From the IMG/VR virus record IMGVR_UViG_3300035682_000005: a DNA stretch of 64,000 nt. One strand, 5' to 3'. The DNA is from a virus. The notes under the pieces were generated by a model that was not told the DNA's origin, did no database searches, and saw only the letters and a list, made by a program, of their open reading frames with translations. Positions 7,902-60,484 of the stretch are shown in pieces (the stretch's first letter is position 1; each line of letters starts with the position of its first letter). The translations under genes were made by a program, and so were the position numbers.

Positions 7902-7903
7902 TC

Positions 7904-8734: not shown

Positions 8735-8760
8735 TGTAGACATGAGTGTTTGTGTGAATT

Positions 8761-13721: not shown

Positions 13722-13739
13722 ACTTTATGGGACTTGAAT

Positions 13740-16226: not shown

Positions 16227-16256
16227 GCATACATACTTTGTGATGGTGATTTGAGT

Positions 16257-16667
16257 ATGGCAAATTTCTTATACGATAGTGCACGAGAAAAATTTTTGAG
16301 TGGAGAGTTGTCGTGGATCAACGATGACATTCGTGTTGCTGTACTTGTTGATAGCATTTACACAGGCAATGATTACTCTCGTGAAAACCACATAACACTT
16401 TCAGATCTACCTGTCAGTGCAATTTACAAGACATCTACTCCACTTACTAACAAAGAAGCCTCAAAAGGTGTTGCAAACGCTGCACCGGTCGTGTTTAGGG
16501 GTGTGCCAGCAGGGGTGTCGATCACTTCTGTTGTTATTTACAAACAAGGCAGTTCTGCCGTTAGCTCAATATTAATTGCACACATTGATGCTCAACTTCA
16601 GACAACTGGATTAGACGATGTATCAATTCAGTGGAAAACAACAGACAACAAAATATTCAAGTTATAG
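16257..16667 (+). CDS. Putative virion structural protein
   Basis: MANFLYDSAREKFLSGELSW..IRVAVL...W..KIFKL resembles small phage tail-associated proteins. Confidence 0.45.
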   Translation: MANFLYDSAREKFLSGELSWINDDIRVAVLVDSIYTGNDYSRENHITLSDLPVSAIYKTSTPLTNKEASKGVANAAPVVFRGVPAGVSITSVVIYKQGSSAVSSILIAHIDAQLQTTGLDDVSIQWKTTDNKIFKL

Positions 16668-16670
16668 TAT

Positions 16671-17051
16671 ATGGCAGGCTTAGGAATTTCATACTACATT
16701 ACACACATCAAGCAGCCTGCGGAGAGACTTCCAATTGACGTTAGTTTTGGAAAACTTCACGTTCTTCCAAGAGGAGCAAAAGAGATCATTTCGGCTGAAG
16801 TATCAGCAAAAAGATGGCCGCGGCGATCTCCAGATGACGTTGAGATTGCAAACAGCTTTGTTGCTAGTAGTAATCCACACGACGGTGGTCCAATTCCATC
16901 TATAACCATATTGAATCCAAATAAGACATCAGTTCGATTTGTGGTTGAAGGTGGTGAAAGTGGATACGACTATGAAGTAACTGTTTTGGTTACGTTTGAC
17001 AATGGTGCAAAATTGGAAGAAGAAGTGTTCGTAAGAGTGAGAGAAGAATAG
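16671..17051 (+). CDS. Putative virion/fibre-adaptor-like protein
   Basis: KQPAERLPIDVSF...GGESGYDYEVTV..T..G..LE pattern. Confidence 0.45.
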   Translation: MAGLGISYYITHIKQPAERLPIDVSFGKLHVLPRGAKEIISAEVSAKRWPRRSPDDVEIANSFVASSNPHDGGPIPSITILNPNKTSVRFVVEGGESGYDYEVTVLVTFDNGAKLEEEVFVRVREE

Positions 17052-17062: not shown

Positions 17063-17103
17063 AAAATGCCGTATTGCGGAATTTACAATCAGGAGTAATT
17101 ACA

Positions 17104-18231
17104 ATGGCTATTACATCAAAGTTTTTAAGAGACATTCGTGAAAGTGCTGAAGCAGATTTGCCTACTCATGCTCCCGATGCGTCATCTAGCGTTGGAGCTG
17201 TAAAGTCTGAAGAGACTGAGACAGACGACGAAAAGAAGATTGATGAGGAAGAGGAAGACGAGGACGAAAAACAAGCTGTGTCCGAAGAGTCTGACGAAGA
17301 AGAAAAAGCTGTCGCTGAAGAAGCTGACGAAGACGAACTCTCTGAAGAAGAAGAAGAAGAAGAAGAAGAAGAGGACAATAAGAAGCATGCGGCTGAGTCT
17401 TACGATGATGCTGAAGAAGTAAAAGAAGAAGATGCATCTGTTTCTAAAGATGATGAAGAAAAACTCTCTGAAGAAGAAGATGAAGAAGTAAAAGAAGCTG
17501 CTGATGCACTCACTAAGGATGAAGAACTTCCAGAGTCATTCAAAGCTAAAGTATCATCTATCTTTGAAGCTGCTGTTAAGCGCACCGCCAAGAAGCGTGT
17601 TACTGCACATAAAAAGAAGCTCGTTGAGAGCTACAACAACAAACTTGCAACTAGCAAGAAAAAGATTTCAGAAACTCTTGTCAACAAGGTCGATGGATAC
17701 CTTGACTATGTTGTAGAAGAGTGGATGAAAGATAATAGAGTGGCTGTTGAAGGTGCACTTCGTTCTACAATAACTGAAAAGTTTATTGTTGGATTGAAGG
17801 ATCTTTTTGAGAGTCATTATATTGAAGTTCCAGCTGAGAAAGTAAATGTACTTTCTGAGCAAGAGAATAAGATTAAGAAACTTGAGAAGGAGCTCAACGA
17901 TGAACTCGTTAAGAGTGTTGAACTTCGTAAGGAGAACATTCGTCTCAAGAAATCGTCTATTATCAAGAAGCTCACTGAAGGAATGACTGTAACTGAATCT
18001 GCAAAGTTTGTGGAACTCTGTGAAGGAGTATCTTACGAAAATGCAAATACATTTGGTCATAAGCTCAAGGCGATTAAGGAAACTTACTTTCCAAAAACCC
18101 CTAAAAGCTCCGGTGACATTGACGCTTCTTTATTGACTGAAGGCGGTTTGACGCACGAAGATGACAAGCCAAAGACTATAACTGCGGCTGACATCTACGC
18201 TCAAACCATTTCGCGAATGGTGAAGAAATAG
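17104..18231 (+). CDS. gp22: Prohead core scaffold gp22
   Basis: Long acidic N-terminus; IFEAAV, VDGYLDYVVEEWM, GLKDLFESHYIEVP; RBS AGGAG before ATG 17104. Confidence 0.92.
   Translation: MAITSKFLRDIRESAEADLPTHAPDASSSVGAVKSEETETDDEKKIDEEEEDEDEKQAVSEESDEEEKAVAEEADEDELSEEEEEEEEEEDNKKHAAESYDDAEEVKEEDASVSKDDEEKLSEEEDEEVKEAADALTKDEELPESFKAKVSSIFEAAVKRTAKKRVTAHKKKLVESYNNKLATSKKKISETLVNKVDGYLDYVVEEWMKDNRVAVEGALRSTITEKFIVGLKDLFESHYIEVPAEKVNVLSEQENKIKKLEKELNDELVKSVELRKENIRLKKSSIIKKLTEGMTVTESAKFVELCEGVSYENANTFGHKLKAIKETYFPKTPKSSGDIDASLLTEGGLTHEDDKPKTITAADIYAQTISRMVKK
17344..17370 (+). repeat. (GAA)9 microsatellite encoding poly-Glu
   Basis: Read directly from the sequence. Confidence 0.9.
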
Positions 18232-18276: not shown

Positions 18277-19581
18277 ATGTATCTCACTGAACAACTTCAA
18301 AAGAAATGGGAAAAGGTGCTCAATCACCCTGATTTGCCAGAGGTGCAGGATGCACACAAGAGAGCGGTAATAACTGTTCTTCTTGAGAATCAGGAGAATG
18401 AGGCTCGCAAGGAGCGAGGAATCATTACTGAGGCTAGCCCAACTAATCACGGTGGACTTTCCACACAAACAACTGACGCAAACGGAACTGGCAATGCTAA
18501 TGTACAGGCTTATGATCCTGTCCTTATTTCGCTCGTTCGTCGTGCTCTTCCTAACCTCATGGCATTTGATGTCTGTGGTGTACAGCCAATGAAAGCTCCA
18601 ACTGGACTCATCTTTGCTATGCGTAGCAAGTATGATACTCAGAGTGGTGACGAGGCTCTTTACAAGGAAGCTAAGACATCGCACTCTGGAACTGGTTCGC
18701 ATGATGCAACCGATCCTTTTGCAGCACCTGGTCGTGGTCTTGCCTCGACAGCTGGTGAAGCACTTGGAACTTCTGGTTCACCTGTGTTCAAGGAAATGGC
18801 ATTCTCTATCGATAAGATTTCGGTAGAAGCTAAGACTCGTGCACTCAAAGCTGAGTACACAATGGAACTTGCACAAGACCTTCGTGCAGTACATGGTCTT
18901 GATGCTGAGACTGAGCTTGCTAACATCCTCTCTGCTGAAATTCTTGCAGAGATCAATCGTGAAGTAATTCGCACTGTTTACAACGTTGCTAAGGAAGGTG
19001 CTCAACACCCTGGACTTGCTAACGCTGGAGAGTTCGACCTTGACGTTGATGCAAACGGACGTTGGTCTGTTGAGAAGTATAAGGGCTTGATGGTTCAAAT
19101 CGAGCGCGAAGCTAACACAATCGCTAAGGAAACTCGTCGTGGACGTGGAAATATCCTCATCTGTGACGCTGACACTGCAAGCGCATTGTCTGTTGCTGGA
19201 CTTCTTGATTGCGGATCTGCTCTCAAGGATTCTCTCTCAGTTGATGATACTGGAAACACTTTCGTTGGAGTTCTCAACGGACGTTTCAAAGTATACATCG
19301 ACCCATTTGCTCCTCTTGGCACTAACTTCTTAGTTGCTGGATTCAAGGGCGCAAATCAATATGACGCTGGATTGTTCTACTGCCCATACGTACCACTTCA
19401 AATGGTTCGTGCAGTTGACACTGGTTCATTCCAACCAAAGATTGGATTCAAGACCCGTTACGGGCTTGTAGCTAATCCATTCGCTGCTGCAACAGCGGGT
19501 GACAGTGCTGCTCTTTCTGGAGCACTCACTGCTGGAACTAATGCTTACTACCGCAAGGTTAGCATTAAGAATCTTCTCTAA
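18277..19581 (+). CDS. gp23: Major capsid protein gp23
   Basis: DPVLISLVRR, GVQPM..PTGLIFAMR, ELAQDLRAVHGLDAE, FQPKIGFKTRYG. Confidence 0.98.
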   Translation: MYLTEQLQKKWEKVLNHPDLPEVQDAHKRAVITVLLENQENEARKERGIITEASPTNHGGLSTQTTDANGTGNANVQAYDPVLISLVRRALPNLMAFDVCGVQPMKAPTGLIFAMRSKYDTQSGDEALYKEAKTSHSGTGSHDATDPFAAPGRGLASTAGEALGTSGSPVFKEMAFSIDKISVEAKTRALKAEYTMELAQDLRAVHGLDAETELANILSAEILAEINREVIRTVYNVAKEGAQHPGLANAGEFDLDVDANGRWSVEKYKGLMVQIEREANTIAKETRRGRGNILICDADTASALSVAGLLDCGSALKDSLSVDDTGNTFVGVLNGRFKVYIDPFAPLGTNFLVAGFKGANQYDAGLFYCPYVPLQMVRAVDTGSFQPKIGFKTRYGLVANPFAAATAGDSAALSGALTAGTNAYYRKVSIKNLL

Positions 19582-45116: not shown

Positions 45117-46187
45117 ATGGCAAAAAACAATCCGTTTAGTGATATATTAAAGGTACTAGAAAATGAGTATGCGACAGTGGCTGAAGAAGGCACTTCTGCT
45201 GACGTTGTGGGTTTTATTGATACGGGTTCGTATGCGTTAAACGCACTTTATTCTGGTAGTATCTTTAAGGGTATGCCATCAAATAAAATTTCAGCTCTTG
45301 CTGGTGAAGAAGCCACAGGCAAAACATTCTTTGCTCTTGGTATTGTAAAAAACTTTCTTGATACAAACGAGAAAGCACTAAGCATTGTTTTTGAGTCTGA
45401 AGGCTCAGTCACTAAAGAAATTCTCACATCACGCGGTGTTGATACAAAGCGTGTTCTTATTGTACCTGTTGAGACTATTCAGCAATTTAAAACTCAAGCT
45501 CTTCGAGTTGTTGAAAATCATCTTAACACACCTGAAAAAGATCGTCGTCCATTGCTGTTGTGTCTTGATTCTCTTGGTATGTTATCAACAACCAAAGAAA
45601 TGGCAGACTCTGGTACTGGTAAAGAAGTTAAAGACATGACTCGTACCGCAGAGATTAAAGCGGCGTTTCGAGTGCTGACATTGAAGTTGAGCAAAGCAAA
45701 GATACCTCTTCTGGTAACAAACCATGTGTATCAGTCCATGGGTATGTTCCCAACAAAGGAAATGGGTGGTGGAGGAGGACTTAAGTATGCTGCAAACAAC
45801 ATCATTGCACTTTCTAAATCAAAGAATAAAGATGCTGATGGTACTGTGACGGGCATTTTCATACGATGTAAGAATCTCAAGTCTCGTTTGACAAAAGAAA
45901 ATACAGAAGCAAGCGTTATGCTTTCGTATGATAAAGGTCTTGATAGATATTATGGACTTATTGATCTTGCTATTGAACATGGCATTTTTAAGAAAGTTTC
46001 AACTAAAGTAGAAGTTGCAGACGGCACTGCACATTTTGAAAAGCACATTATCAATAATCCTACTAAGTATTTTACTGAAGATGTGTTAAAGCGCATTGAT
46101 GAAGCGGCACAAAAAGAATATAGCTATGGCGCCGTCACTACTGATACTGGTGATATTGTAGAGGAGATGTTAAATGACGCTCACTGA
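45117..46187 (+). CDS. uvsX: RecA-like recombinase UvsX
   Basis: DTGSYALN, GEEATGKT, DSLGML, DMTR, GGGGLKYAA. Confidence 0.95.
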   Translation: MAKNNPFSDILKVLENEYATVAEEGTSADVVGFIDTGSYALNALYSGSIFKGMPSNKISALAGEEATGKTFFALGIVKNFLDTNEKALSIVFESEGSVTKEILTSRGVDTKRVLIVPVETIQQFKTQALRVVENHLNTPEKDRRPLLLCLDSLGMLSTTKEMADSGTGKEVKDMTRTAEIKAAFRVLTLKLSKAKIPLLVTNHVYQSMGMFPTKEMGGGGGLKYAANNIIALSKSKNKDADGTVTGIFIRCKNLKSRLTKENTEASVMLSYDKGLDRYYGLIDLAIEHGIFKKVSTKVEVADGTAHFEKHIINNPTKYFTEDVLKRIDEAAQKEYSYGAVTTDTGDIVEEMLNDAH

Positions 46188-46536
46188 TACTCCAATAAAA
46201 GACAAATATAGAATTGTATTTGATTCACAAGACTCAAAAAAGTGGTGTGTAGAACTTCTTGCGCCATGCGATCCATTTCACGGCATCATTTTGTCGTATG
46301 GAGAGTTCAATATTAAGAAAGATGTAGATGATGATACAAACCCAAAATTTTCATTTCAAACAGAAATTATTTACGTGCCAGAAAGACTGAAAGATGTTAC
46401 ACTACCCGACGAAGCTGAAGATCAAATGCAGACCCTTCTAGGTCAAATCTTGATCGACATTATTGAAAGTAATGTGAGCAAAGCAAAAGCAGAGAATGGT
46501 AAGATGTTTCTTGAGTTGGTAAAAGATGATAAATGA
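46174..46536 (+). CDS. Hypothetical protein (syntenic with T4 gp40)
   Basis: Lies between uvsX and gp41 and overlaps both. Confidence 0.5.
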   Translation: MTLTDTPIKDKYRIVFDSQDSKKWCVELLAPCDPFHGIILSYGEFNIKKDVDDDTNPKFSFQTEIIYVPERLKDVTLPDEAEDQMQTLLGQILIDIIESNVSKAKAENGKMFLELVKDDK

Positions 46537-47938
46537 TCGAATTGAGTCTGTCATTCTTAGTAGTCTTCTCAATGATGAGACATACTGTAGACGAGTGCTT
46601 CCTTTTATTAAAGCTGAATACTTTTCTGATGAGTGTGAGAAACTTGTCTTTCTGAAAGTTTCAGACTTCATTTTAAAGTATGATGCCTTGCCTTCAAAAG
46701 AAGCACTTGTCATTGCAATATCAAATGACAAACAACTTGTTGACTCTGTAGAGAAGCAAGCAAAAGATGTTGTTGTATCACTTGAGCCAATACGAGTTGA
46801 GCAAAAGTGGCTAATTGATCAGACTGAAGAGTGGTGTAAAGATCGTGCAATCTACCATGCACTCATGAACAGCATCAAAATTGCTGATGATAAGAAAGGA
46901 AAACTTTCTCGCGGCACTATTCCTAAACTACTAACAGATGCACTTTCAGTGTCATTTGATCCAAACATCGGACATAGTTATCTTGATGACACTGATTCGC
47001 GATATGAGTTCTATCACAAAGTAGAAGAGAAGTTTGCGTTTGATCTTGATTGTATGAACAAGATTACAAAGAATGGTGTACCACGTAAAACACTCAATGT
47101 TATACTTGCTGGAACTGCCGTTGGTAAATCTCTCGCACTGTGTCACATGGCCGCGAGCTATTTTATGAATGGCAAAAATGTTTTGTACATTACGCTTGAA
47201 ATGGCAGAAGCAAGAATTGCAGAACGAATCGATGCAAACTTGCTTAACATCTCTCTATCAGATCTTCAAAGCATATCAAAAGATATGTACGATAGAAAGA
47301 TTGCGGCGATCAAAAATAAGACAGTTGGTCGAATGATTATTAAAGAGTATCCAACTGCAACTGCATCTGTTACTCACTTTAGAGCATTGTTGAGTGAGTT
47401 GTATTTAAAAAAGAATTTTGTGCCCGACGTTATCTTTGTTGACTACTTAAACATATCTGCAAGTGCTCGATTGAACCAATCGAATCATGTCAACAGCTAC
47501 ACATACGTCAAGAGCATTGCAGAAGAGTTTCGTGGACTTGCAGTAGAGTGTAATGTTCCAATCTGGACTGCAACTCAAACAAACAGACAAGGCTTCGTAT
47601 CGAGTGACATCGGACTTGAAAATACTTCAGAGTCATTTGGTCTTCCAGCAACTGCTGACTTTATGATTGCGCTATCATCGACAGAAGAACTTGAGCAGAT
47701 GGGTCAGATTCTCGTTAAACAGCTCAAGAATCGATACAATGACATCTCTACACTGAAACGCTTCGTGTTGGGTATCGATAGATCCAAAATGCGATTGTTT
47801 GATCTCGACCAATCTGCGCAAGATGAACTTGTAGACACCAACATGAAAGATAAGAAAGATACCTCGTCGTTTGATAAATCCAAATTTGGTTCATCTATGA
47901 TGGCTGAGAAAAAAGATACTGATGACTTTAAGTGGTAG
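46526..47938 (+). CDS. gp41: Replicative helicase gp41
   Basis: AGTAVGKS, TLEMAE, IKEYPT, VDYLNI, SESFGLPATAD, KQLKNRY. Confidence 0.96.
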   Translation: MINDRIESVILSSLLNDETYCRRVLPFIKAEYFSDECEKLVFLKVSDFILKYDALPSKEALVIAISNDKQLVDSVEKQAKDVVVSLEPIRVEQKWLIDQTEEWCKDRAIYHALMNSIKIADDKKGKLSRGTIPKLLTDALSVSFDPNIGHSYLDDTDSRYEFYHKVEEKFAFDLDCMNKITKNGVPRKTLNVILAGTAVGKSLALCHMAASYFMNGKNVLYITLEMAEARIAERIDANLLNISLSDLQSISKDMYDRKIAAIKNKTVGRMIIKEYPTATASVTHFRALLSELYLKKNFVPDVIFVDYLNISASARLNQSNHVNSYTYVKSIAEEFRGLAVECNVPIWTATQTNRQGFVSSDIGLENTSESFGLPATADFMIALSSTEELEQMGQILVKQLKNRYNDISTLKRFVLGIDRSKMRLFDLDQSAQDELVDTNMKDKKDTSSFDKSKFGSSMMAEKKDTDDFKW

Positions 47939-48037: not shown

Positions 48038-48073
48038 ACATAAATAATTGGTTGTGTGAGACTGATACGACCA

Positions 48074-49297
48074 ATGAAAAAATTTAGACAATACATAACT
48101 GAATCTGCTGATAAGAATTCCCATCTTGAACATTTGGAAGATGAGGTGTTCAACGGCGGTGTCAACGGGACTCGACGAGCTATCAATTTCTTGAGAGGCT
48201 TGCGAGACATGCTCTCAGGCAGCTCAAATGCATCAGTCAATGTTACTGTTAAATGGGACGGAGCGCCTGCAATCGTTTGTGGTATCAATCCAGAAAACGG
48301 AAAGTTCTTTGTTGCAACAAAAAGCGCATTCAATAAAACTCCAAAGTTAAACTATACTCATGATGATATTGAAAAGAACCACTCTGGTCAAACAACTCTC
48401 ATCGACAAACTTCGCATCGCTCTCGACAATCTTTCAACGTTGGGTATTAAAGGTATTCTTCAGGGCGACTTACTATTCACAAAGGGTGAACTACAAAACA
48501 TAGAACACAACGGTGAATCATTTCTTTCATTTAGAGCTAACACAATTACATATGCTGTGCCACAAGATTCAGACCTTGCTGGTGCTATTCGTGCAGCTAA
48601 CATCGGCATCGTGTTTCACACAACGTACACTGGTAAGACTGTTCAAGATATGAAAGCATCGTTTGGTGCAAACATATCATCACTCAAGAAAACATCAAAT
48701 GTATGGGTGACTGATGCTGATTTTAGAGATGAGTCTGGAACAGCAACTCTCACAAAAGATGAAACCACATACGTCTCTACACGTTTAAGTGAAATTGGTC
48801 GACAGTTTAATCGTATGGACTCTGCAATCATCAATGAGATTGTAACAGATGATGAGATTGTTTCATTTATCAAAACATATGTGAATTCTAAAGTAAAGGT
48901 TGGCGAAAACATCACTGGCACTCAAAAGTATGCTAAGGGTCTTATTGAATTTATTACAGACAAGTATCAGAAAGAAATTGATAAGCTCAAAACAGATCGC
49001 GGCAAACAAGGTCGCAAAGATCGGCTCAAACAACACGTGTCATTTATCAAAACAAATCGTGAACAGTTTATTCTTATGTTCTTGATTGCAGCTCTTATTG
49101 CAGATGTCAAAGGTGTTCTGTTAAGTAAGCTACGAAAGGTGAACTCTATTGGTACGTTTTTAGAGACGCCTGATGGATTCAAAGTGACATCACCTGAAGG
49201 TTTTGTTGCAGTAGATCACATGAAAGGTAATGCAGTAAAACTTGTTGATAGACTTGAATTTAGTCGAGCAAACTTCACGCTGGATAAAGGCTGGTAA
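48074..49297 (+). CDS. Ligase-fold nucleotidyltransferase-like protein (DUF6267-like) with a CTS-like N-terminus
   Basis: MKKFRQYITES; HLEHLED, KWDGAP, QGDLLF, PEGFV, VKLVDRLEFS; late-type CATAAATA at 48039. Confidence 0.7.
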   Translation: MKKFRQYITESADKNSHLEHLEDEVFNGGVNGTRRAINFLRGLRDMLSGSSNASVNVTVKWDGAPAIVCGINPENGKFFVATKSAFNKTPKLNYTHDDIEKNHSGQTTLIDKLRIALDNLSTLGIKGILQGDLLFTKGELQNIEHNGESFLSFRANTITYAVPQDSDLAGAIRAANIGIVFHTTYTGKTVQDMKASFGANISSLKKTSNVWVTDADFRDESGTATLTKDETTYVSTRLSEIGRQFNRMDSAIINEIVTDDEIVSFIKTYVNSKVKVGENITGTQKYAKGLIEFITDKYQKEIDKLKTDRGKQGRKDRLKQHVSFIKTNREQFILMFLIAALIADVKGVLLSKLRKVNSIGTFLETPDGFKVTSPEGFVAVDHMKGNAVKLVDRLEFSRANFTLDKGW

Positions 49298-49301
49298 AAC
49301 T

Positions 49302-49865
49302 ATGAAAAAATTTAAATCATATTTAACAGAATCGAACGAAGACATTCACGAAGAGTCTGAGTATCAGGGCAAGAAAGTTACGTTAAACAAACCATTCAGA
49401 ACACCTGATGGACCAAAGAAGTTTTCTGTGTATGTCAAGAATGACAACAACGTAGTCAAAGTAAATTTTGGTGATCCAAACATGGAAATTAAGCGCGATG
49501 ATCCTGAACGTAGGGCAAACTATCGTGCTCGCCACAACTGCGATGATCCAGGTCCTAAATGGAAAGCTAACTATTGGTCATGCAAAATGTGGTCGTCCAA
49601 GCCTGTATCAAAAGTGACAGAATCTGCACTAATTAAATATGACTTTGATGTTCTTGATGGACCAAAAACAAAACGTAAAGTTGGCGCAGTTGTTGGTATT
49701 AAAGGCACTTCACCTGAAGATGCTCTCAAGCAATACATGATACCACATGGATATCGAAAGAGTGAAATGTCCACAAAAGATGGTATCATCATAGTTAAGG
49801 CACAGTGGGGGTATGACTCTCGCGACACTGATACAATGTACTACAAAGTTACTAAGTCTATATAA
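49302..49865 (+). CDS. Conserved T4-like basic protein with a CTS-like N-terminus
   Basis: MKKFKSYLTES; EYQGKKVTLNKP, KVNFGDP, RARHNC, YWSCKMW. Confidence 0.65.
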   Translation: MKKFKSYLTESNEDIHEESEYQGKKVTLNKPFRTPDGPKKFSVYVKNDNNVVKVNFGDPNMEIKRDDPERRANYRARHNCDDPGPKWKANYWSCKMWSSKPVSKVTESALIKYDFDVLDGPKTKRKVGAVVGIKGTSPEDALKQYMIPHGYRKSEMSTKDGIIIVKAQWGYDSRDTDTMYYKVTKSI

Positions 49866-49882
49866 ACCGTAAGGAGAAAATT

Positions 49883-50125
49883 ATGATCGTTAAACCATTG
49901 TCACAAGAAACATCGCTTGCATCTGCAACTGACGTAGAACTTGCATCTGTAGTTCGTGTCGTTAATACTGGTAGTGCAACAACTGTAACAATTAAAGATG
50001 GTAGCACAACTGTGGCATCTTTGACTGTAGCAGCCGGTGAGGTTTTGAATATTCAAAAAACACCATCACACACATTGCTTGCTACTGCGTCTGTAAAAGC
50101 CGTGAAGATTGCTCACACGAACTAA
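49883..50125 (+). CDS. Small beta-rich virion-type protein
   Basis: Strong RBS AAGGAG; T/V/A-rich. Confidence 0.55.
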   Translation: MIVKPLSQETSLASATDVELASVVRVVNTGSATTVTIKDGSTTVASLTVAAGEVLNIQKTPSHTLLATASVKAVKIAHTN

Positions 50126-51180
50126 TGAAGAGTTTTGTTGAATACATTGTAGAGGCTAATCCTTCCGTCGATAAGCAATATCGATCTGAAGCTCTGCGTG
50201 TATTCAATCGGATGATTGCCACACTCGAAAGATTGGTCAAATCAAACTCTATAGATCACATGGAAGTTGAGCGAACAAAAAATCCTGCACTCACGTTCAA
50301 TTTAGGTAAGTTTATTGCTGATGATAAGTATGAAAATGTGAGTATAATGTTCACATCGTCTACTCGTGAGCGAGCTGGCTCGTATGGCAAACTCTCTGGA
50401 CAAATTTTTATAGAACTTGCCATTATGAGTAGTCGCAAAAATCGAGATCCATCATTTAAGCCAACCGGAACTTCATACGACGATCACAACGGCTGGATAT
50501 ATTCTGATGCGTTTCTTCGATTTAAAGATGCGAGCAATTATAAACATCTACTCAATGTAATCAAACAGCGTAAAGAAGATGTTCGAGACATTTTTGTTCA
50601 TGAGTTTGTACATCACATGGATGCTCTTCGTTATAGGAATGTGGCGTATACAGACGTGCCATCATACGACAACAAAACAGGCTATGGCAAAGAATATTTT
50701 AATCACCCAAAAGAGCTGAACGCACATACGCAAGAGTTAATCATGAATATTGATGCGTGGTATAAAACATACTACCTCAGCATCGTCACGACACTTAAGA
50801 GTCGATTTGTTGGTAAGTTTAATACTGCAAAGAATCATGACCAATATGAAGATGCAATGTTTATGGCTCACAAATTTCAAATCAACTACAACATGTTTGT
50901 TCAGTATATAACAGACAAGCAGTTTGCAATCAAAGAGATCAAAGAAAAGATGCCAAGTTCTAAAAAGAATTTTTTTAGCCACTTGACTTCTGATAGTAAT
51001 AAAAAAGTTTTAGCGCGTTTGTACCAATACTATGATGAAGTGTTGAAAACGCGTTTTGAACTTCTCAAGTCAACATTAGACAAATTGCCAAAACAACTAA
51101 ACAATCCAGAAGCTGCCGAGTATGTAAAACTACATGCACCTGACGTATACAAGACTCTTCGTAAATTGGGGATGAAATGA
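50125..51180 (+). CDS. HExxH zinc metalloprotease-like protein with a CTS-like N-terminus
   Basis: MKSFVEYIVEA; FVHEFVHHMD...YFNHPKELNAH. Confidence 0.6.
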   Translation: MKSFVEYIVEANPSVDKQYRSEALRVFNRMIATLERLVKSNSIDHMEVERTKNPALTFNLGKFIADDKYENVSIMFTSSTRERAGSYGKLSGQIFIELAIMSSRKNRDPSFKPTGTSYDDHNGWIYSDAFLRFKDASNYKHLLNVIKQRKEDVRDIFVHEFVHHMDALRYRNVAYTDVPSYDNKTGYGKEYFNHPKELNAHTQELIMNIDAWYKTYYLSIVTTLKSRFVGKFNTAKNHDQYEDAMFMAHKFQINYNMFVQYITDKQFAIKEIKEKMPSSKKNFFSHLTSDSNKKVLARLYQYYDEVLKTRFELLKSTLDKLPKQLNNPEAAEYVKLHAPDVYKTLRKLGMK

Positions 51181-52190
51181 AAACATTGGCTGAAGTTGTC
51201 AAAAAGAAAACAGCTGTGTTTGCATTTGGTCGAATGAATCCTCCTACCATGGGTCATGAAAAACTTATTGACAAAGTAATTGCAGTGGCCCGCAAAGAAA
51301 ACGCAGAGCCATTTATTTTTGTTTCTCACACACAAGATGCAAAAAAGAATCCACTGACAAGCACACAAAAAGCAAAATACTTGAGACTTGGTGTGCCAAA
51401 AGCTGAGAAGTATATTAAAGCAACCGCATCAATTAAAACACCATTCGATGCGGTTGGACATCTTATAGATCTTGGTTACACAGATGTAATCATGATTGCT
51501 GGTGATGACCGTGTGTCAGATTTTAAAAAGTCTATTGGCAGTTATGTAAATCATCCAGATCCAGCTAAAAGTTTAAATCTTAATTCGTTCAAAGTTGTAA
51601 GCGCCGGTGCCCGTGATCCTGATGCTGAAGGTGCCGAAGGTATGAGCGCAACAAAAATGCGCCAGGCAGCAGCATCAAATGATTTTGTCACATTTAAACG
51701 CGGCGCCTTGTCAAATCTAAGTGACAAATATGCTCGTGAGTTGTTTGATGCCTTGCGTAAAGCAATGAATATTGTAGAAAAGGTAGAAGACATCCAGCGT
51801 TTAAAAAATACACTAAACATTCCCCGCAAAAACATGCCTCAAATTAAACGTGAGCATATACCAGATTTTATTAAATTGCTCAATACCCACGGCGTGACCG
51901 TTGCAAAACGTAGTGTGAGTGTGCGAAATTTGAAGCCAACACAATCAGAAATTAATATGAACAAGGTGCGAGAAAAGCACGAAAAATTTGTTAATGGTAA
52001 AAAAGAGCCAAAGCCATTTATTGTTTCTTACGACAACTTCATATTAGATGGACACCATCAGTTGTTGGCACTACAAACTTTGGATAAAGACGCGACAGTA
52101 TCTTGTTACATAGTTAGTGTAAAGATGAAAGACCTGTTGCAATATGCGCATGAGTATCCAAAGACAACATATAAAGATATTGACGACTAA
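51177..52190 (+). CDS. Cytidylyltransferase-like (HxGH) domain fused to a ParB/Srx-like domain
   Basis: FGRMNPPTMGH, KKNPL, AGDDR, SAGARDPD, MSATKMR; C-terminal LKPTQ...ILDGHH. Confidence 0.75.
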   Translation: MKTLAEVVKKKTAVFAFGRMNPPTMGHEKLIDKVIAVARKENAEPFIFVSHTQDAKKNPLTSTQKAKYLRLGVPKAEKYIKATASIKTPFDAVGHLIDLGYTDVIMIAGDDRVSDFKKSIGSYVNHPDPAKSLNLNSFKVVSAGARDPDAEGAEGMSATKMRQAAASNDFVTFKRGALSNLSDKYARELFDALRKAMNIVEKVEDIQRLKNTLNIPRKNMPQIKREHIPDFIKLLNTHGVTVAKRSVSVRNLKPTQSEINMNKVREKHEKFVNGKKEPKPFIVSYDNFILDGHHQLLALQTLDKDATVSCYIVSVKMKDLLQYAHEYPKTTYKDIDD

Positions 52191-52200
52191 ATATAGCACT

Positions 52201-52521
52201 ATGAAAGACTTCAAAACATTCATACAAGAAGCAACAGACGGACCTCCATCAGCTGAAGACCGTGTCCGTGAGCGTAATACGCGTGACAAAGGTGCACTCA
52301 AAGTTCGCCAAACCAGAGAACTTGAACGTGCTCGTGAACAAGACTTTAGAAAGAAAGAAGCAGACCGCAAAGCTGTGGAAATAAAAAAGAATGCAGAGCG
52401 ACTGAAAGAATCTGATGCTGATGTAATCAATGATCCAGATGCTGAAGCCGTAAATGAATATGTTGAAGATGGCACAGATGAGGCTGTTGCGGCATATAGA
52501 AAAGCTACGCCAGGGATCTGA
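52201..52521 (+). CDS. Small charged protein with a CTS-like N-terminus
   Basis: MKDFKTFIQEA; C-terminal GTDE...YRKATPG; ACTAAATA 7 nt upstream. Confidence 0.6.
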   Translation: MKDFKTFIQEATDGPPSAEDRVRERNTRDKGALKVRQTRELERAREQDFRKKEADRKAVEIKKNAERLKESDADVINDPDAEAVNEYVEDGTDEAVAAYRKATPGI

Positions 52522-52551
52522 TATACATAGTAGTGAAATGATTTTTGTTTA

Positions 52552-52833
52552 ATGGAGAATAATATGAGTAATGATACAGCAGAAGCAACACAAGAAGCAG
52601 AAGTTACAGCAGCACCTGAACTTCCAACGCTTACATCTGAACAAGAAATTGCAGCCCTTCGCAGTGTACATGACTTTCTTTCTAAGTTTGATCGTGTGCC
52701 TGGATTTCTTGCCAATCAATGGTCGCAAGCACTTGATACGGTAGCTGTTGTTGCAAACTCGCTTATTAAGAAAGCACAAGAAAACGACACAACAACTACT
52801 GAAGCTGAGTCTGATGAAACTGTTACTCAGTAA
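52552..52833 (+). CDS. Hypothetical acidic protein
   Basis: ORF; may start at 52564 (GGAG upstream). Confidence 0.55.
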   Translation: MENNMSNDTAEATQEAEVTAAPELPTLTSEQEIAALRSVHDFLSKFDRVPGFLANQWSQALDTVAVVANSLIKKAQENDTTTTEAESDETVTQ

Positions 52834-52851
52834 TTTCTGTTGTGAGTTATT

Positions 52852-53037
52852 ATGCCATACTACGAATACGAATGTAAGAAGTGTGGAATCATAGAAGTTC
52901 GCCAAAGCATCACAGATAACGCATTGAAAACCTGCCCAGTCTGTGATGCTCAAATTAAACGCATTCTTTCGGCGACAGCTAATCCTCAATTTAAAGGATC
53001 TGGTTTCTACACAACTGATTATGTGAAGAAGACGTAA
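52852..53037 (+). CDS. FmdB-family zinc-ribbon protein
   Basis: MPYYEYECKKCG..CPVC..FKGSGFYTTDY. Confidence 0.85.
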   Translation: MPYYEYECKKCGIIEVRQSITDNALKTCPVCDAQIKRILSATANPQFKGSGFYTTDYVKKT

Positions 53038-53906
53038 TGTCAATCGTTGCTTGCAAATATTTTGACGACATCGGATGGGTCATAGCAAAGAATCGTGACA
53101 GAGTATATAAGCCTGTGATTCGTGTGCGCAAATCTTTTCGCACCAATGTTGAACGCCTGTTGTTATGGGACCAAAAGACAAAGTACACTGAGGGTGTTAA
53201 TGAACACGGTGTTGCAATTGTGTCTGCCAGTATTTCAACAACAACAGATGAGATTGAAGGTGCAATTGCAACAAAGTACAATTCACGCCTCACAAAAACA
53301 CCTCGCGTGTACTACTCACCGGACGGTTTGAGAATTCGCAAAGCACTCTTTGAGAAAACCGCGTTCGATGCGATTCGCAAAGTTATTGAATTTCAAATAC
53401 CAGGTAACACTATTGTTGCAGACAAAAACAGATGCTTTCTAATTGAAGCTGGGTTTCTCAACACAAACGAGTATGTGTATGAAGTTGTCGAAGTTCCAAC
53501 AACTCATATTGCTGTTAGAACAAATCATGGTATTTTTTTACCTTGGACTGGCTATAGTGCTGATGTGCCACAAGAAGTAACAAAGCGCAAAAGTTCTGAT
53601 GTTCGATATGAAAAAGTAAACGAAGGTCTAAAACGTGCTTCCACGTTTGATCAACTCATTGATGTGCTGTCACTCATAAATGACAGTGATCCACAAATGA
53701 ACCCGTTGCGTGTAGATCCAAGAAAGGGTGCAATGCGCACATCAGGGCAGATCTTCATTATTCCAAAACACAAAACATTACACTACAGACCTATCTGGTG
53801 TGATACCGTGTTCAATCTGGATAAGCTAAATACAGTCAACGAAAAAACTTTCTTTGAAGTAGTGTCAACAAGAAAGTTGATAAGTTTTACAAATCATTCC
53901 ATCTAG
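53037..53906 (+). CDS. Ntn-hydrolase-like protein
   Basis: N-terminal MSIVA..AKNRDR, EGVNEHGV, VRTNH. Confidence 0.55.
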   Translation: MSIVACKYFDDIGWVIAKNRDRVYKPVIRVRKSFRTNVERLLLWDQKTKYTEGVNEHGVAIVSASISTTTDEIEGAIATKYNSRLTKTPRVYYSPDGLRIRKALFEKTAFDAIRKVIEFQIPGNTIVADKNRCFLIEAGFLNTNEYVYEVVEVPTTHIAVRTNHGIFLPWTGYSADVPQEVTKRKSSDVRYEKVNEGLKRASTFDQLIDVLSLINDSDPQMNPLRVDPRKGAMRTSGQIFIIPKHKTLHYRPIWCDTVFNLDKLNTVNEKTFFEVVSTRKLISFTNHSI

Positions 53907-53913
53907 GAGAGTC

Positions 53914-55029
53914 ATGGCATCTATTAAAGATATATCCAAGTCACTTATTAGTGCAGTAAGTGAAGTTGTTTCCAAGAGTTCGGAAACTCGTACTAAATTG
54001 AAAAAGACATTGTTTAGTGAAGCACTAAAGAAGTTTAAAGTATCGTCTGCATCGGAGTTGTCTGAGCAAGATAAAAAAGCGTTCTATGCGTATGTTCAAA
54101 ATCAACTGACAGAAGCTGATTGTTCGTGCGACTCAATGGATGAAGATGATATGCCTGGAGATGAAGTATATCACACTGCTGGAGATGAAGATGCTAAGAA
54201 AAAGAAAGAACTTGGTGAAAACGAAGACGAAGAAGATTCGAGCGTTGAAGCCACCGACGCTGAAGAGAAAGACGATCTTGAAGAGCGTTGCTGGGACGGC
54301 TACAAACCTACGCCTGGTGTAAAGGCATATGAAAAGGGCTCTTGCGTCAAAGAAGGTGCAGACCCCGATGAGCTTGCAACAAATGGTGCCCTTGGCGTGA
54401 CTGATGCTTCAAAGCAACTTCCTGTTCATGCTGATGTTCTTAGAGATTCTTCTCCAGTCGATGGAACAACAGAATACAGACTCTTTGCACAATTCAACAC
54501 AAACACGTTGCCACAGATTGTTCCGCCAGTAGTTTTACCTGGTGCTCCAACGGTTGATGCACTTCGTGATATTGTTGAAGGTCTTCCTTGGTTCTGTGAT
54601 GTGTGTGAAAGGGCACTTGCTGACGCAAGCGACTCTCCCCATCAAAAAGTAGCAGACGAAACAACTGAAGATATTACTGAAGCAGCTGTTGTTACTGATC
54701 TTGATAAGAAAACAATCTCTCTTATCAGAAGAAGTGTTCAAAACGCAAAAGTTGGCGTTATCAAAAATAACGTTAGCTACTCATTAGAAGTAGAACAAGA
54801 TAGTGCAAAACTTACTGTTACCCTTGAGCCAAGTCCAAAAGCTCCCGGCAAACTTGCCTGGGCTGTGCATGATAATAGTGGCGTGCGAGAGCCAGTATAC
54901 AGCGCAATTTTTGTACAAGGTGACGAACGCACAAGCCTGTTAAAACTTCAGTCATTGTTGTCTGACATCGCCCGCCGCGTCCCAACAAAATATTACAACC
55001 CTGAGTATAACGCACATTCGACGAGATAG
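53914..55029 (+). CDS. Acidic multi-module putative head/internal protein
   Basis: ALKKF..SEL...KKAFY module, CWDGYK module and many xxE junctions; RBS AGGAG. Confidence 0.5.
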   Translation: MASIKDISKSLISAVSEVVSKSSETRTKLKKTLFSEALKKFKVSSASELSEQDKKAFYAYVQNQLTEADCSCDSMDEDDMPGDEVYHTAGDEDAKKKKELGENEDEEDSSVEATDAEEKDDLEERCWDGYKPTPGVKAYEKGSCVKEGADPDELATNGALGVTDASKQLPVHADVLRDSSPVDGTTEYRLFAQFNTNTLPQIVPPVVLPGAPTVDALRDIVEGLPWFCDVCERALADASDSPHQKVADETTEDITEAAVVTDLDKKTISLIRRSVQNAKVGVIKNNVSYSLEVEQDSAKLTVTLEPSPKAPGKLAWAVHDNSGVREPVYSAIFVQGDERTSLLKLQSLLSDIARRVPTKYYNPEYNAHSTR

Positions 55030-55032
55030 TAT

Positions 55033-55620
55033 ATGAAGTCGTTTCGTACATATTTGATAGAAAATGTTCAGACAGATGGTGATGTTGCGGTTACAACTGC
55101 TCTTCCTGAAATCTATCTTGATATGGACGAAACGATTGTAGACTGGATGAAAGGTGCCGATAGCGCACTTGAGCGCGCCGGCAAGCCATCATGGAATGAT
55201 CCGTACTGGACAGAGAATCACACTGAAGAAGAGGCTGAAAAGATTAAGTGGCAAATTCTTAACACAACACCAAACTTCTGGGAAGACCTTGACTTTTTAC
55301 CTGACGGTAAAGCCCTCTGGAACTTTGTGAAGAAGTACAAGCCACACATTCTCAGTGCCTGTGGCACACTCGCTACTACGTGTAAGAATGGCAAGAAACG
55401 TTGGTTAGCAAAGTTTTTAGGGTATAAAAACCTTGGTAACATTCATCTTGTAAAGCGTTCACAGAAAAAAGATTTTGCTGTTGTTGATGGTACGCCCACA
55501 ATACTTATTGACGATTTCATCAAGAATTGTCAAGAGTACAAAGCTCATGGTGGTCTGGCAATTCAGCGCACAACTACTATAGAAGTGATTAGTAAATTAA
55601 AGCGTCTGGGATTCAAATAA
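55033..55620 (+). CDS. HAD 5'(3')-nucleotidase-like phosphatase with a CTS-like N-terminus
   Basis: MKSFRTYLIEN; IYLDMDETIVD, FWEDL, ILS, K..W, ILIDD. Confidence 0.8.
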   Translation: MKSFRTYLIENVQTDGDVAVTTALPEIYLDMDETIVDWMKGADSALERAGKPSWNDPYWTENHTEEEAEKIKWQILNTTPNFWEDLDFLPDGKALWNFVKKYKPHILSACGTLATTCKNGKKRWLAKFLGYKNLGNIHLVKRSQKKDFAVVDGTPTILIDDFIKNCQEYKAHGGLAIQRTTTIEVISKLKRLGFK

Positions 55621-55653
55621 ATAAAGTATAACTTTTAATTGGAGATAATTGAT

Positions 55654-56511
55654 ATGGCACTCTGGGGTAAAGAAGATAAAACAACAGCTCGACCAAAATC
55701 AGTTAAGCTAAAAGCCAACGGCACACTTGCTCATGATGCATCTGGCAAGAAACTTGTATACTTGTCTAAAGAAGAAGCTATTGCAAACTCTACTAAGGGC
55801 GCCTCTGGTGCTGGATGGTACACGGTTCTTACCACTAAGAAAGGTACAGCCGAAGAGCGCACACGTCTTGAACTTCTTATTGCAATCTCTGATGAAGATA
55901 GAGAGTCAATTAATAATGTTGAGTTTATAGAAGCAGATTTATTTAATAGTAATGTTCTTGCTAATGGTGGTGCCGCTCCTGGAATAGAAGATCCTAATGG
56001 TCGTCCTGGATGGTATTTCAAAAACGATTCCTCTGGAAAAAAGGTTAATTGGTATTATTTTGATGGCCAAGCTCACGATATAAATTTGAGTGATTTTTCT
56101 GCGTATGCTGTAGTCACTCTTGATTCTACAACTTCACGTCCATTTTTAGCACTGTATAGCAAACCCACAGGAGCCGGAGATATTATACCTGGGTTTGCTC
56201 GCTCAAGTAGGGTATATACTTGGCCAGCAGGCGCCGTTGCGGGAACAAAATATTTGATATATTTTGGACAAAATCCTAATGTTCATTTAGACTTACCAAG
56301 AGTTGAATTAACACCAGGAATAACTAGAGGACCTTTCCTACCTACAGAAAAAGTGGCAACTATATCTTTGCACTCTGACTCAGGATCTTCTGTAAATACT
56401 GTTCAGTTTGTTGTAGAAAATTTGGGTATTAATTCTACCACAGTGAAAGCTGACGTGGAATTAAAACTCGATGCTAGTGACGTAACTGAAGACGATGCTG
56501 GCCTAGAATAA
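55654..56511 (+). CDS. Putative virion protein (MALWG N-terminus) with an inserted domain
   Basis: AATAAATA late-type promoter at 55616; RBS GGAG. Confidence 0.5.
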   Translation: MALWGKEDKTTARPKSVKLKANGTLAHDASGKKLVYLSKEEAIANSTKGASGAGWYTVLTTKKGTAEERTRLELLIAISDEDRESINNVEFIEADLFNSNVLANGGAAPGIEDPNGRPGWYFKNDSSGKKVNWYYFDGQAHDINLSDFSAYAVVTLDSTTSRPFLALYSKPTGAGDIIPGFARSSRVYTWPAGAVAGTKYLIYFGQNPNVHLDLPRVELTPGITRGPFLPTEKVATISLHSDSGSSVNTVQFVVENLGINSTTVKADVELKLDASDVTEDDAGLE

Positions 56512-56551
56512 TCTTAAACAGAACATTGTTGTAGCTATATGATGTGAACTA

Positions 56552-56965
56552 ATGTTAAATGAATTTGTTGAAAATATGAGCTTGCATTTAACTGAAAAAA
56601 ATATTGTCATGTATGCCATGAAACACTACGACAATGTTCAGTGCATTGACATTGATGAATTTTACGATGACCTTAAACGCATCAACTACATCAAGCGTTT
56701 ATTTATTCGATACCAAACAAACACTGAACTCAAAGAGAGATTGATTCTTAATCACTTGATCATTTTGTTTAATGTGTTTCCAGTTGAAGTTGCCACAAAT
56801 CTTTTGTTCTTCAAGATTGACAGCGATCACTGGTCACAACTCAAAACGTTTCTTGTATACTTAAACTTTATGCCAGACAAACTCACGTTTTTAGAAAACT
56901 GTGAGATTCTGACAACTGATATACCACTCGACTCACACATCATAAATGTTTTGAGGAGCTTATGA
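56552..56965 (+). CDS. Conserved T4-like hypothetical protein
   Basis: YAMKHYDN..C..EFYDDLKRINYIKRL..LKERLILNHLIILFNVF. Confidence 0.7.
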   Translation: MLNEFVENMSLHLTEKNIVMYAMKHYDNVQCIDIDEFYDDLKRINYIKRLFIRYQTNTELKERLILNHLIILFNVFPVEVATNLLFFKIDSDHWSQLKTFLVYLNFMPDKLTFLENCEILTTDIPLDSHIINVLRSL

Positions 56966-57312
56966 GAACTTACTTTCAATTTATTACTGAATCAAAAGAC
57001 TTTTCAAAAGAAGATGCACAGCGCGTTGGTGACAAGCTAGACGTGGATTGGAACAAAGTTGACATCGAACAGTTTAGAATTGGTCTAAGTGTTGAGAGCG
57101 AGCATGATGATGGTTCTGAACTTGATGTTGTTGGATCTGAGAAAGATTTGGGTAAAATAGTTCTAGCACACCTCAAGGAACTTCCAGACTACTATACAAA
57201 ATTAAAGCAAGTTGACGAAGATGGTGTTCCAGTAAATTCGATCTCTGGTGGTGGAATTGCAAACATTCAAGAACCACTCATTCGCAAAAAACCAAAAAAC
57301 GAAAGCAAATAG
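56962..57312 (+). CDS. DUF5661-like protein with a CTS-like N-terminus
   Basis: MRTYFQFITES; QFRIGLSVESEH..IVLAHLKELPDYYTKL. Confidence 0.65.
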   Translation: MRTYFQFITESKDFSKEDAQRVGDKLDVDWNKVDIEQFRIGLSVESEHDDGSELDVVGSEKDLGKIVLAHLKELPDYYTKLKQVDEDGVPVNSISGGGIANIQEPLIRKKPKNESK

Positions 57313-59473: not shown

Positions 59474-60484
59474 ATGTTATATGTCGATTTGAAATACGTT
59501 ACGACTGTAGGTATACATCTTCGCAACTTTAAGAAAAAGAAAGACAACCTCTTCAATTGTTCGTGTCCTATTTGTGGTGACAGCGAAAGAAAAAAGTCAA
59601 AAGCTCGCGGCTACTTTTATCAAAAAGGCACTTCGATGTACTTCAAGTGCCACAACTGTGGTTCTGGTCTTGGCGTTGCAAACTTTCTCAAGAATTACTT
59701 TCCTGCATATCACGAACAATACTTGCTTGAGAAATACAAATCTGGTGTAGACACAAAGAAGACAAAAGCATCAGTTGAACCTGTAACAAAAATTGTACTA
59801 TCGAAGTTTTACTCTGAGAAAGCAATTAAGTTGTCTGAGATGTCAGATGAGCACTATGCAAAGCAGTATGTAATTCGTAGAAAGATTCCAGCCGAGTATT
59901 ACTCTCGACTTTTTTTTACTGATGATTTTGCTGGTCTTGTTGATGATGTGTTTCCGGGCAAATATGAGAATCTTCAAAAAAACGAGCCTCGACTGATTAT
60001 ACCATTCTTTGATACACAGAACAATCTGACTGGTTTACAAGGTCGTTCATTCTCTCCTGAGAAGTCGCTCCGATACATAACAATTCGTGCGACGAGTAAT
60101 ACTGATTTAATATTTGGTCTTGAGCGATTTGACCCATCAAAAACTGGTTATGTTGTTGAAGGTCCAATCGACAGTTTGTTTTTGCCAAACTGTATTGCTG
60201 CTGCCAATTCTGATCTTGCGTCTGTTATTGATAAAACTAAAAACGACAACTTAGTTCTTGTATACGACAATGAGCCGCGCAATCGTGAGATCGTGAAGAT
60301 GATTGAATCATCAATCAACAAGAATAAAAAAGTTTGTATCTGGACGTCCAACATCGTGCAGAAAGATATAAATGACATGATACTATCTGGCACATCATTG
60401 CGCGATATACAACACATAATACAAAAACGCACGTTCAGTGGTCTTGAAGCACAGTTGGAGTTTTGTAAATGGAAAAAAGTGTGA
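59474..60484 (+). CDS. gp61: DNA primase gp61
   Basis: CPICGDS..KARGY..KCHNCG, EGPIDSLF, DNEPRN, KDINDM. Confidence 0.95.
   Translation: MLYVDLKYVTTVGIHLRNFKKKKDNLFNCSCPICGDSERKKSKARGYFYQKGTSMYFKCHNCGSGLGVANFLKNYFPAYHEQYLLEKYKSGVDTKKTKASVEPVTKIVLSKFYSEKAIKLSEMSDEHYAKQYVIRRKIPAEYYSRLFFTDDFAGLVDDVFPGKYENLQKNEPRLIIPFFDTQNNLTGLQGRSFSPEKSLRYITIRATSNTDLIFGLERFDPSKTGYVVEGPIDSLFLPNCIAAANSDLASVIDKTKNDNLVLVYDNEPRNREIVKMIESSINKNKKVCIWTSNIVQKDINDMILSGTSLRDIQHIIQKRTFSGLEAQLEFCKWKKV

Follow-up and report, generated by a model that had tools for sequence, protein, structure and literature searches.

The internal proteins of bacteriophage T4, IPI, IPII, and IPIII, and their capsid targeting sequence (CTS) are reportedly the subject of work published by Mullaney and Black in 1996. 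The three proteins carry a 10-residue N-terminal tag, M-K-x-[YF]-x-x-F-I-x-E, in which Glu10 is the presumed site of the prohead protease gp21. Their bodies are unrelated, the tag being all that they have in common, and their genes are clustered in a variable locus. A tag with the same four key positions begins six genes, named here A, B, D, F, K, and N, in the virus record IMGVR_UViG_3300035682_000005, of which a 64-kb stretch (the window) was scanned; the scans were extended beyond it to relatives of this phage. The six genes likewise code for proteins with unrelated bodies, and they form a cluster accompanied by a protease and a scaffold of the same families as those of T4. The evidence strongly supports the identification of their shared 10-residue N-terminus as a T4-type capsid-targeting propeptide, and the probability that it directs the six proteins into the prohead, where gp21 removes it, is put at about 0.78. 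The system differs from that of T4 in belonging to a cyanophage-type (Kyanoviridae-like) phage, in the location of the locus, between genes 41 and 61, in being known from sequence, and in its cargo, mostly enzyme-like proteins of 20–44 kDa, whereas the proteins of T4 are small inhibitors.

Amber-suppression work on IPIII of T4 traced targeting to residues 4 and 7 of the CTS, with residues 8 and 10 responsible for processing (PMC9026906). T4 packages and delivers CTS fusions up to the size of β-galactosidase, so that the size of a cargo is no obvious obstacle to its packaging (PMC9026906; for CTS reviews see PMC3012670 and PMC9026906), and Ip1–3 have been described as inhibitors of GmrSD (PMC12373910). 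Attention to the CTS has so far centred mainly on the T-even coliphages and on its use as a tool for engineering. Another T4 precedent is the Alt ADP-ribosyltransferase, an enzyme loaded into the head, trimmed by gp21, and injected, which acts at once after injection. It is different in that it is processed at both ends, lacks the IPIII-type 10-residue tag, and represents another enzyme family.

Virion-borne enzymes have already been proposed for cyanophages. Three papers on cyanophage virions deal with NMNAT/cytidylyltransferases, S-adenosylmethionine (SAM) hydrolase, and kinases, which come from the same gene families and the same neighbourhood as genes of the window; in their available parts they ask for confirmation of the proposal and give no loading mechanism or signal (PMC3037559, PMC9602691, PMC10665884). 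Such a mechanism would be provided by the shared leader, through which DUF6267, HAD, HExxH, and small proteins join the set. In the giant phages SPN3US and phiKZ many proteins, enzymes included, are loaded into the head, cut by a gp21-like protease, and ejected, but these phages represent another lineage with another cleavage context, and the titles and abstracts of the respective papers name no common 10-residue N-terminal tag (PMC5694885, PMC7411985). In the literature searched the tag was not found described in cyanophage-type relatives of T4, which none of the CTS papers listed concerns by its title, nor anywhere beyond the T-even and giant phages.

The leader shared by the six genes

Six plus-strand open reading frames (ORFs) of the window start with M-[KR]-x-[FY]-x-x-[YF]-[IL]-x-E; all its long ORFs lie on that strand, to which the coordinates below refer unless stated otherwise. 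The N-termini read exactly as listed in the earlier note on this DNA: MKKFRQYITES in gene A (48074), MKKFKSYLTES in B (49302), MKSFVEYIVEA in D (50125), MKDFKTFIQEA in F (52201), MKSFRTYLIEN in K (55033), and MRTYFQFITES in N (56962). A search for the peptide pattern at every ATG, GTG, and TTG in six frames returned, among ORFs of at least 100 amino acids (aa), only these six (106–407 aa), along with one 16-aa chance ORF. No other plus-strand ORF of at least 100 aa in the window bears the tag, those for head and tail proteins, UvsX, gp41, and primase included. Position 4 is F or Y and position 7 is Y or F in all six leaders, and positions 8–10 (ITE, LTE, IVE, IQE, LIE, and ITE) fit [L/I]-x-E, the motif at which gp21 would be expected to act.

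The shortness of the motif, and nothing more, speaks for chance or for paralogues that have kept an old and functionless N-terminus. The DNA pattern ATGARRNNNTWYNNNNNNTWYHTNNNNGAR occurs six times in the window, compared with a mean of 0.00 (no match at all) in 100 dinucleotide-preserving shuffles. As to common ancestry, the bodies behind the tag are unrelated, differing in Pfam family, PHROG family, and fold, and the tag remains invariant over 19 homologues of D down to 37% identity. The Pfam domains begin past the tag, at residue 15 in A, 27 in K, and 19 in N, and in AlphaFold2 (AF2) models the predicted local distance difference test score (pLDDT) is below 50 at residues 1–16 of A and 1–10 of D, ahead of confident folds. 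An origin by chance or paralogy is refuted by the shuffles and the unrelated folds, and its probability is close to nil.

The N-terminus might also have nothing to do with the capsid and act in translation initiation or at the mRNA level, mark proteins for degradation or regulation, or be a recombination "linker" aiding gene shuffling in a hypervariable locus. Several of the tagged genes have no clear Shine-Dalgarno sequence, and their first codons are A-rich; for the linker variant it also counts that Repoila et al. in 1994 reportedly proposed a role in gene shuffling for the CTS-coding DNA common to the IP loci of T-even phages. However, the codons at the conserved positions vary (TTT/TTC, TAC/TAT, ATA/ATT/TTA/TTG, and GAA/GAG), and because synonymous codons differ it is the peptide, not the DNA, that is conserved and under selection; an explanation at the DNA level was rejected on this ground. 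Moreover, conservation concerns positions 4, 7, 8, and 10 and not the first codons alone. Between orthologues of the window and of two related loci (L001 and L002), the leader changes at positions 2, 3, 5, 6, 9, and 11, the remaining changes being conservative swaps among Y, F, and L or between I and L. The enrichment of tagged proteins in virions (five of six) and the recovery of T4 ipII and ipIII by the pattern, both described below, also disagree with a role outside the capsid, which is very improbable.

Correspondence with T4 head maturation

The whole T4 genome (168,903 bp) was scanned with a pattern built from the five lysine-form leaders, the sixth leader starting with M-R. It gave three matches, which are the starts of ipII, ipIII (MKTYQEFIAE), and ORF 61.1, and none with the reversed control. 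The four CTS positions mapped in T4 (4, 7, 8, and 10) are the conserved ones in the window, while positions 3, 5, 6, and 9 vary.

A gp21-type prohead protease, the presumed leader-removing enzyme, is encoded at 15567–16226 (Peptidase_S77, E 4.5e-37; phrog_207, E 1e-82; 39% identity to T4 gp21), and a gp22-type scaffolding core protein, on which the leaders presumably dock, at 17074–18231 (T4_CASP, E 2e-59; phrog_237), both Pfam matches exceeding their cut-offs. The major capsid protein gp23 is encoded at 18277–19581 (phrog_138, E 3e-147). Its sequence GIITE/ASPTNHGG (a slash marks the known or presumed cut) corresponds to FLTE/AEIGGDHGY of T4 gp23, with ITE/A at residues 50–53 (18424–18435) in the place of the LTE/A maturation site of the T4 protein, from which it follows that the maturation site of the phage's own gp23 would be the same as the I-T-E/[AS] of the leaders. 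The proposal of the earlier note that the leader is of the T4 CTS type and marks head-packaged proteins is strongly supported by the ipII and ipIII matches, the four CTS positions, the presence of gp21 and gp22, ITE/A in gp23, and the virion proteins of relatives.

Two observations were made at the margins of this comparison. ORF 61.1 of T4 (NC_000866, 18966–19130, minus strand; 54 aa) starts with MKTFKEFIKE and adjoins gene 61. Like the cluster of the window, it is situated between genes 41 and 61, and it may code for an internal protein so far overlooked or be what is left of an ancestral cargo locus. In the window, two small ORFs (16251–17051) are situated between the gp21 and gp22 genes, the position of core genes in T4. 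One of them (16671–17051) has a match at E 7e-8 to Pfam Gp77, a fibre-tail adaptor of podophages, and the other matches phrog_644 only; neither has an N-terminus rich in [IL]-x-E.

The tag in related phages and their virions

The tagged cluster occupies the interval between the ORFs of the gp41 helicase (46526–47938) and the gp61 primase (59474–60484); these two and the UvsX ORF (45117–46187) were read from translations and from genes annotated under matching DNA of relatives. Other T4-type genes of the window code for tail and neck proteins, terminase, sheath, tube, portal (13734–15353), and UvsY, in addition to gp21, gp22, and gp23. Among cultured phages the closest are Methylophilales phage Melnitz, Pelagibacter phage HTVC008M, and the T4-like cyanophages (Kyanoviridae), with 65–68% DNA identity over uvsX–gp41; megablast of the cluster region against 50,697 phage records found no match.

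The spread of the tag was followed in 83 related loci, comprising 80 IMG/VR loci with DUF6267 homologues, fetched with patterns that included the leader itself, which introduces a slight bias, and the loci of Melnitz-3, S-SM1, and S-CREM2. A loose form of the tag was present at 105 of 1052 unique ORF N-termini, as against 0.18% of internal positions, i.e., it was enriched 55-fold, and the strict form was enriched 494-fold. Position 5, left free in the regular expression, is Lys or Arg in 78 of the 105 loosely tagged N-termini. At least 12 unrelated families carry the tag, among them DUF6267, cytidylyltransferase fusions of up to 1074 aa, DxDxT HAD proteins, several Pfam-less families of 300–450 aa, and small proteins. 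According to the earlier note, the idea would fail if the motif were equally common among early and replication genes; in the related loci it was found on 0 of 27 gp41, 0 of 16 UvsX, 0 of 5 primase, and 0 of 6 polymerase genes. Scans of whole records for ORF-start matches gave five in the closest contig (93 kb), all in this cluster, one in S-SM1, one in Melnitz, and three in S-CREM2, the reversed controls giving none.

The strongest evidence from outside the window is that tagged ORFs are virion proteins in five of six cases in S-SM1, S-CREM2, and S-SCSM1, whose virion proteomes have been published; besides NMNAT-like cytidylyltransferases, the five include a SAM hydrolase and a single protein with no assigned function. 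With a base rate of 20–25%, the binomial probability of such a tally is ~0.002–0.005. The S-SM1 cytidylyltransferase SSM1_190 (= T4-GC190), detected in virions with 25 peptide counts according to Table S8 of Sullivan et al. 2010 (PMC3037559), starts with MKKFSAFLNE/A, is 41% identical to the product of gene E of the window, and is the only pattern match in the S-SM1 genome. The ORF-start matches of S-CREM2 are gp6, a SAM hydrolase (MKDFDSFLEE), gp136 (MQTFSMFFSE), and gp154, a cytidylyltransferase (MKNFSSFLTE/A); all three belong to the published virion proteome (PMC10665884), and a fourth pattern match is internal to nrdA. The NMNAT of S-SCSM1, a virion protein, starts with MKSFLQFLKE/A, and two other matches in this phage are not ORF starts. 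The virion protein T4-GC15 was considered as a possible DUF6267 protein and rejected, as it maps to the baseplate region, DUF6267 being T4-GC71; the DUF6267 protein of S-SM1 has no tag, and T4-GC71 has no proteomic record (PMC3037559). The NMNAT of S-CBWM1 virions is uninformative either way, this phage being outside Kyanoviridae and giving no pattern match.

Gene E (51177–52190; 337 aa) codes for a protein with cytidylyltransferase/NMNAT-like and ParB-like nuclease domains (CTP_transf_like, ParBc_2; phrog_3041, E 1e-58). It starts with MKTLAE, recorded in the earlier note as a weaker instance of the leader and indeed present; the whole leader, MKTLAEVVKK, is degenerate, with no aromatic residue at positions 4 and 7 and no Glu at position 10, and the same is true of L001 and L002. 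The orthologues in S-SM1, S-CREM2, S-SCSM1, and Syn9 have the full leader. In many relatives (L003–L075, e.g., L075:11869–15090) proteins of 790–1074 aa have the tagged cytidylyltransferase as their first domain; they contain DUF5824 as well and resemble large "polyvalent" delivered proteins. The interdomain linker of the E protein contains an IVE/KVE pair (here the slash separates two motifs), a candidate gp21 site.

A further leader-like stretch was noticed in S-CREM2 (OR473000) gp12 (7704–10313 of the record, minus strand), a "Cas9-like" virion protein with PLRFASFMAE/A at residues 16–26 of its annotated N-terminus. The stretch lacks a Met in register, pointing to a wrongly called start or to a targeting segment that is internal.

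The cargo of the tagged genes

Gene A (48074–49297; 407 aa) codes for the leader MKKFRQYITE/S followed by DUF6267 (Pfam E 3e-117, from residue 15). The motifs KWDG, QGD, EG.VA, and K389 do not vary among 36 homologues of ~47% identity. They comprise motif I, KxDG with the catalytic lysine (K60-W-D-G-A-P-A), and candidates for motifs III–V (Q130-G-D, E375-G-x-V-A, and K389), which follow one another in the right order in the sequence. The AF2 model (mean pLDDT 81) is placed by VIA-align closest to REL1 (TbREL1; Z 8.5, 189 aligned residues, root-mean-square deviation 3.9) and the Naegleria RNA ligase NgrRnl (8.2), followed by T4 Rnl2 (7.7), fungal Trl1 (7.5), T4 Rnl1 (7.2), and then many DNA ligases, Z values that are middling for this tool. 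Foldseek against PDB gave nothing at E ≤0.001, all matches being at E 0.016 or weaker, and the profile had no match among PDB sequences. On the motifs and the model, the A protein is probably a ligase-type nucleotidyltransferase, RNA-ligase-like. PHROG 455 joins DUF6267 and cytidylyltransferase in one model, and the two genes are adjacent or near each other in the loci inspected, which together suggest a functional link. No literature was found on DUF6267 or on "cytitidyltransferase".

Gene D (50125–51180; 351 aa; MKSFVEYIVE/A) represents a rare family with no Pfam match, of which 18 homologues were found in a search of 5.8 billion proteins. It has an invariant HExxHxxD block and a second block, N.P.E.NAHTQ; over the 19 homologues, M1, K2, F4, Y7, E10, H159, E160, H163, D166, E197, and H201 do not change. 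In the AF2 model (pLDDT 89) the two blocks lie on consecutive helices behind a β-sheet, HExxHxxD on helix 150–170 and E197 and H201 on the next long one. Foldseek against PDB found nothing at E ≤0.001, VIA-wide just generic helical bundles over residues 199–348, and the profile nothing meaningful among PDB sequences; the only peptidase matches were sub-threshold, to Peptidase_M76 (in 5 of 19 members) and to M90. The D protein is possibly a zincin-type metallopeptidase, to judge by its invariant residues and predicted fold. In a protein atlas it falls into unnamed viral clusters, with leads below 0.9, to be taken as leads only, to LPD23 and LPD1 (large polyvalent protein domains).

Gene K (55033–55620; 195 aa; MKSFRTYLIE/N) codes for a HAD-type 5'(3')-deoxyribonucleotidase-like domain (phrog_2643, E 2.4e-21), with DMDET at residues 29–33; the match to Pfam NT5C, from residue 27, scores 20.4 bits, below the cut-off of 24.8. 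The other three tagged proteins are small and charged and are not recognisable as enzymes. Gene B (49302–49865; 187 aa; MKKFKSYLTE/S) codes for a basic protein with a weak match to DUF5754 (phrog_7595, E 3e-14), whose tagged relatives share the motif EYQG(K/R)KV in many loci. The product of gene F (52201–52521; 106 aa; MKDFKTFIQE/A) is highly charged and belongs to no known family, and that of gene N (56962–57312; 116 aa; MRTYFQFITE/S) contains DUF5661 (Pfam E 1.5e-19, from residue 19). The view of the earlier note that the cargo is mostly enzyme-like thus holds in part: it agrees with the ligase-type motifs of A and its matches to RNA ligase folds at Z 7–8.5, with the assignment of K as a nucleotidase by PHROG (sub-cut-off in Pfam), and with the invariant HExxH of D. 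It does not extend to B, F, and N; D has no fold match, and E, the nucleotidyltransferase–ParB protein, has a degenerate tag.

Proposed route into the head and fate of the cargo

The cluster would be transcribed late, during prohead building, from ATAAATA-type promoters at 48040 and 55617. The short amphipathic leader, with aromatic residues at positions 4 and 7 and Ile or Leu at position 8, would dock the six proteins on the gp22 core in the prohead, and gp21 would then cut behind Glu10, using the [IL]-x-E site that it also recognises in the capsid protein, and free mature proteins of 10.8–44 kDa inside the head. These would most likely exit with the DNA at the next infection. Packaging is the step that is well supported; for docking on gp22 and cleavage after Glu10 we infer that the leaders behave as their T4 counterparts do, and ejection of the proteins into the cell and a role for them there are presumed by analogy.

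Several observations weigh against this mechanism. The presence of tagged proteins in virions is known from the proteomes of relatives, and for the phage of the window is deduced from its sequence. E, the sole protein with orthologues proven in virions, is without the key residues of the tag in this phage. The authors of the S-CREM2 proteome caution that abundant proteins might co-purify in CsCl (PMC10665884). S-SCSM1 gene 30 (106 aa) is tagged and not annotated as a virion protein, though it sits between two virion-protein genes, and Syn9 gp184 is tagged yet undetected in the older Syn9 virion proteome, as given in Table S8 of PMC3037559. Late-promoter support consists of a 7-base motif alone, and the scan covered 64 kb of the phage genome, the closest contig being 64% complete.

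The leader might target the prohead and the proteins nevertheless have their function within the particle itself, where they would be auxiliary parts of the core or scaffold, condense DNA, or act as enzymes of assembly. In that case they would be degraded or retained in the capsid and would be inactive in the next host. The T4 core proteins are likewise loaded and cut by gp21 (PMC9026906), B, F, and N are small, charged, and devoid of an enzymatic signature, and the injection of the window proteins is suggested by analogy with T4. Against such a role, T4 delivers CTS-tagged proteins, foreign fusions among them, to its host (PMC9026906), A, K, and the E orthologues represent enzyme families for which a head filled with DNA offers no obvious task, and tagged proteins persist in the mature virions of relatives. 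A purely in-particle function is therefore regarded as unlikely.

Returning to packaging followed by delivery, injection of a repair or counter-defence kit is plausible on the T4 analogy. A more general version can be outlined, according to which cyanophage-type relatives of T4 would preload, via the ancestral T4 tag, a changeable set of enzymes that is injected with the DNA and repairs or pre-empts abortive-infection damage before phage genes are expressed. The set would comprise here RNA-ligase-like, HAD phosphatase/nucleotidase, and metallopeptidase-like proteins, and in relatives, among others, NMNAT-like proteins and SAM hydrolase; the damage would be, for example, tRNA cleavage, NAD+ depletion, or SAM-dependent restriction. 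This version is tentative and, taken as a whole, rather doubtful. If it is true, the injected enzymes of uncultured aquatic phages could become readable from sequence. Enzymes that would be expressed late are new candidates for effectors of the first minute of infection.

The label known from T4 is now found on a dozen unrelated families in abundant aquatic T4 relatives (Kyanoviridae and kin), and it offers a mechanism by which NMNAT-like proteins, SAM hydrolase, and further proteins considered "non-structural" would come to be in purified cyanophage virions, where they recur. A simple sequence rule could indicate, from metagenomes, which proteins uncultured phages package and probably inject.

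Late-promoter-like boxes and untagged genes of the cluster

The sequence ATAAATA occurs 12 times on the plus strand of the window and once on the minus strand, and nine of these boxes are situated 18–100 nt upstream of gene starts, among them those of sheath and tube (gp18, gp19), scaffold gp22, capsid gp23, gene A, and gene L. The box at 48040–48046 lies 34 nt upstream of gene A and a second one, at 55617–55623, 37 nt upstream of gene L. The earlier note placed late-type boxes in front of several tagged genes. This is confirmed in part, for gene A (48074); gene F (52201) is preceded just by CTAAATA, 13 nt away, the other tagged genes follow the preceding gene at a distance of 0–30 nt, and the second ATAAATA precedes the untagged gene L. 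Genes of the cluster abut or overlap, with gaps of −4 to 40 nt, as in an operon, and their layout together with the two boxes would fit two late operons.

The remaining genes of the cluster have no leader. Gene C (49883–50125; 80 aa) belongs to no family. Genes G (93 aa, acidic), H (61 aa, a zinc ribbon), I, and J occupy 52552–55029. The product of gene I (53037–53906; 289 aa) is basic, starts with MSIVACKYF, and has no family, and that of gene J (53914–55029; 371 aa) is very acidic, with an isoelectric point of 4.7; both genes are conserved in the closest relatives only. Gene L (55654–56511; 285 aa) gives a weak match to the head-protein family phrog_613 (E 1.5e-4). Its N-terminus, MALWGKEDK, resembles that of a cyanophage "S-layer domain" virion protein, the S-SM1 virion protein SSM1_195 starting with MALWGITDA, but the link is weak, blastp giving no match at 1e-3. 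Gene M (56552–56965; 137 aa) codes for DUF7207 and is a conserved neighbour in cyanophages.

In S-SM1 the interval between genes 41 and 61 (L082:6447–13354) codes for six virion proteins detected by mass spectrometry (GC1453, 190, 1454, 1455, 425, and 426), most of them without the tag. By this comparison, the "replication-module" interval between genes 41 and 61 is an island of virion proteins that would reach the particle by more than one route.

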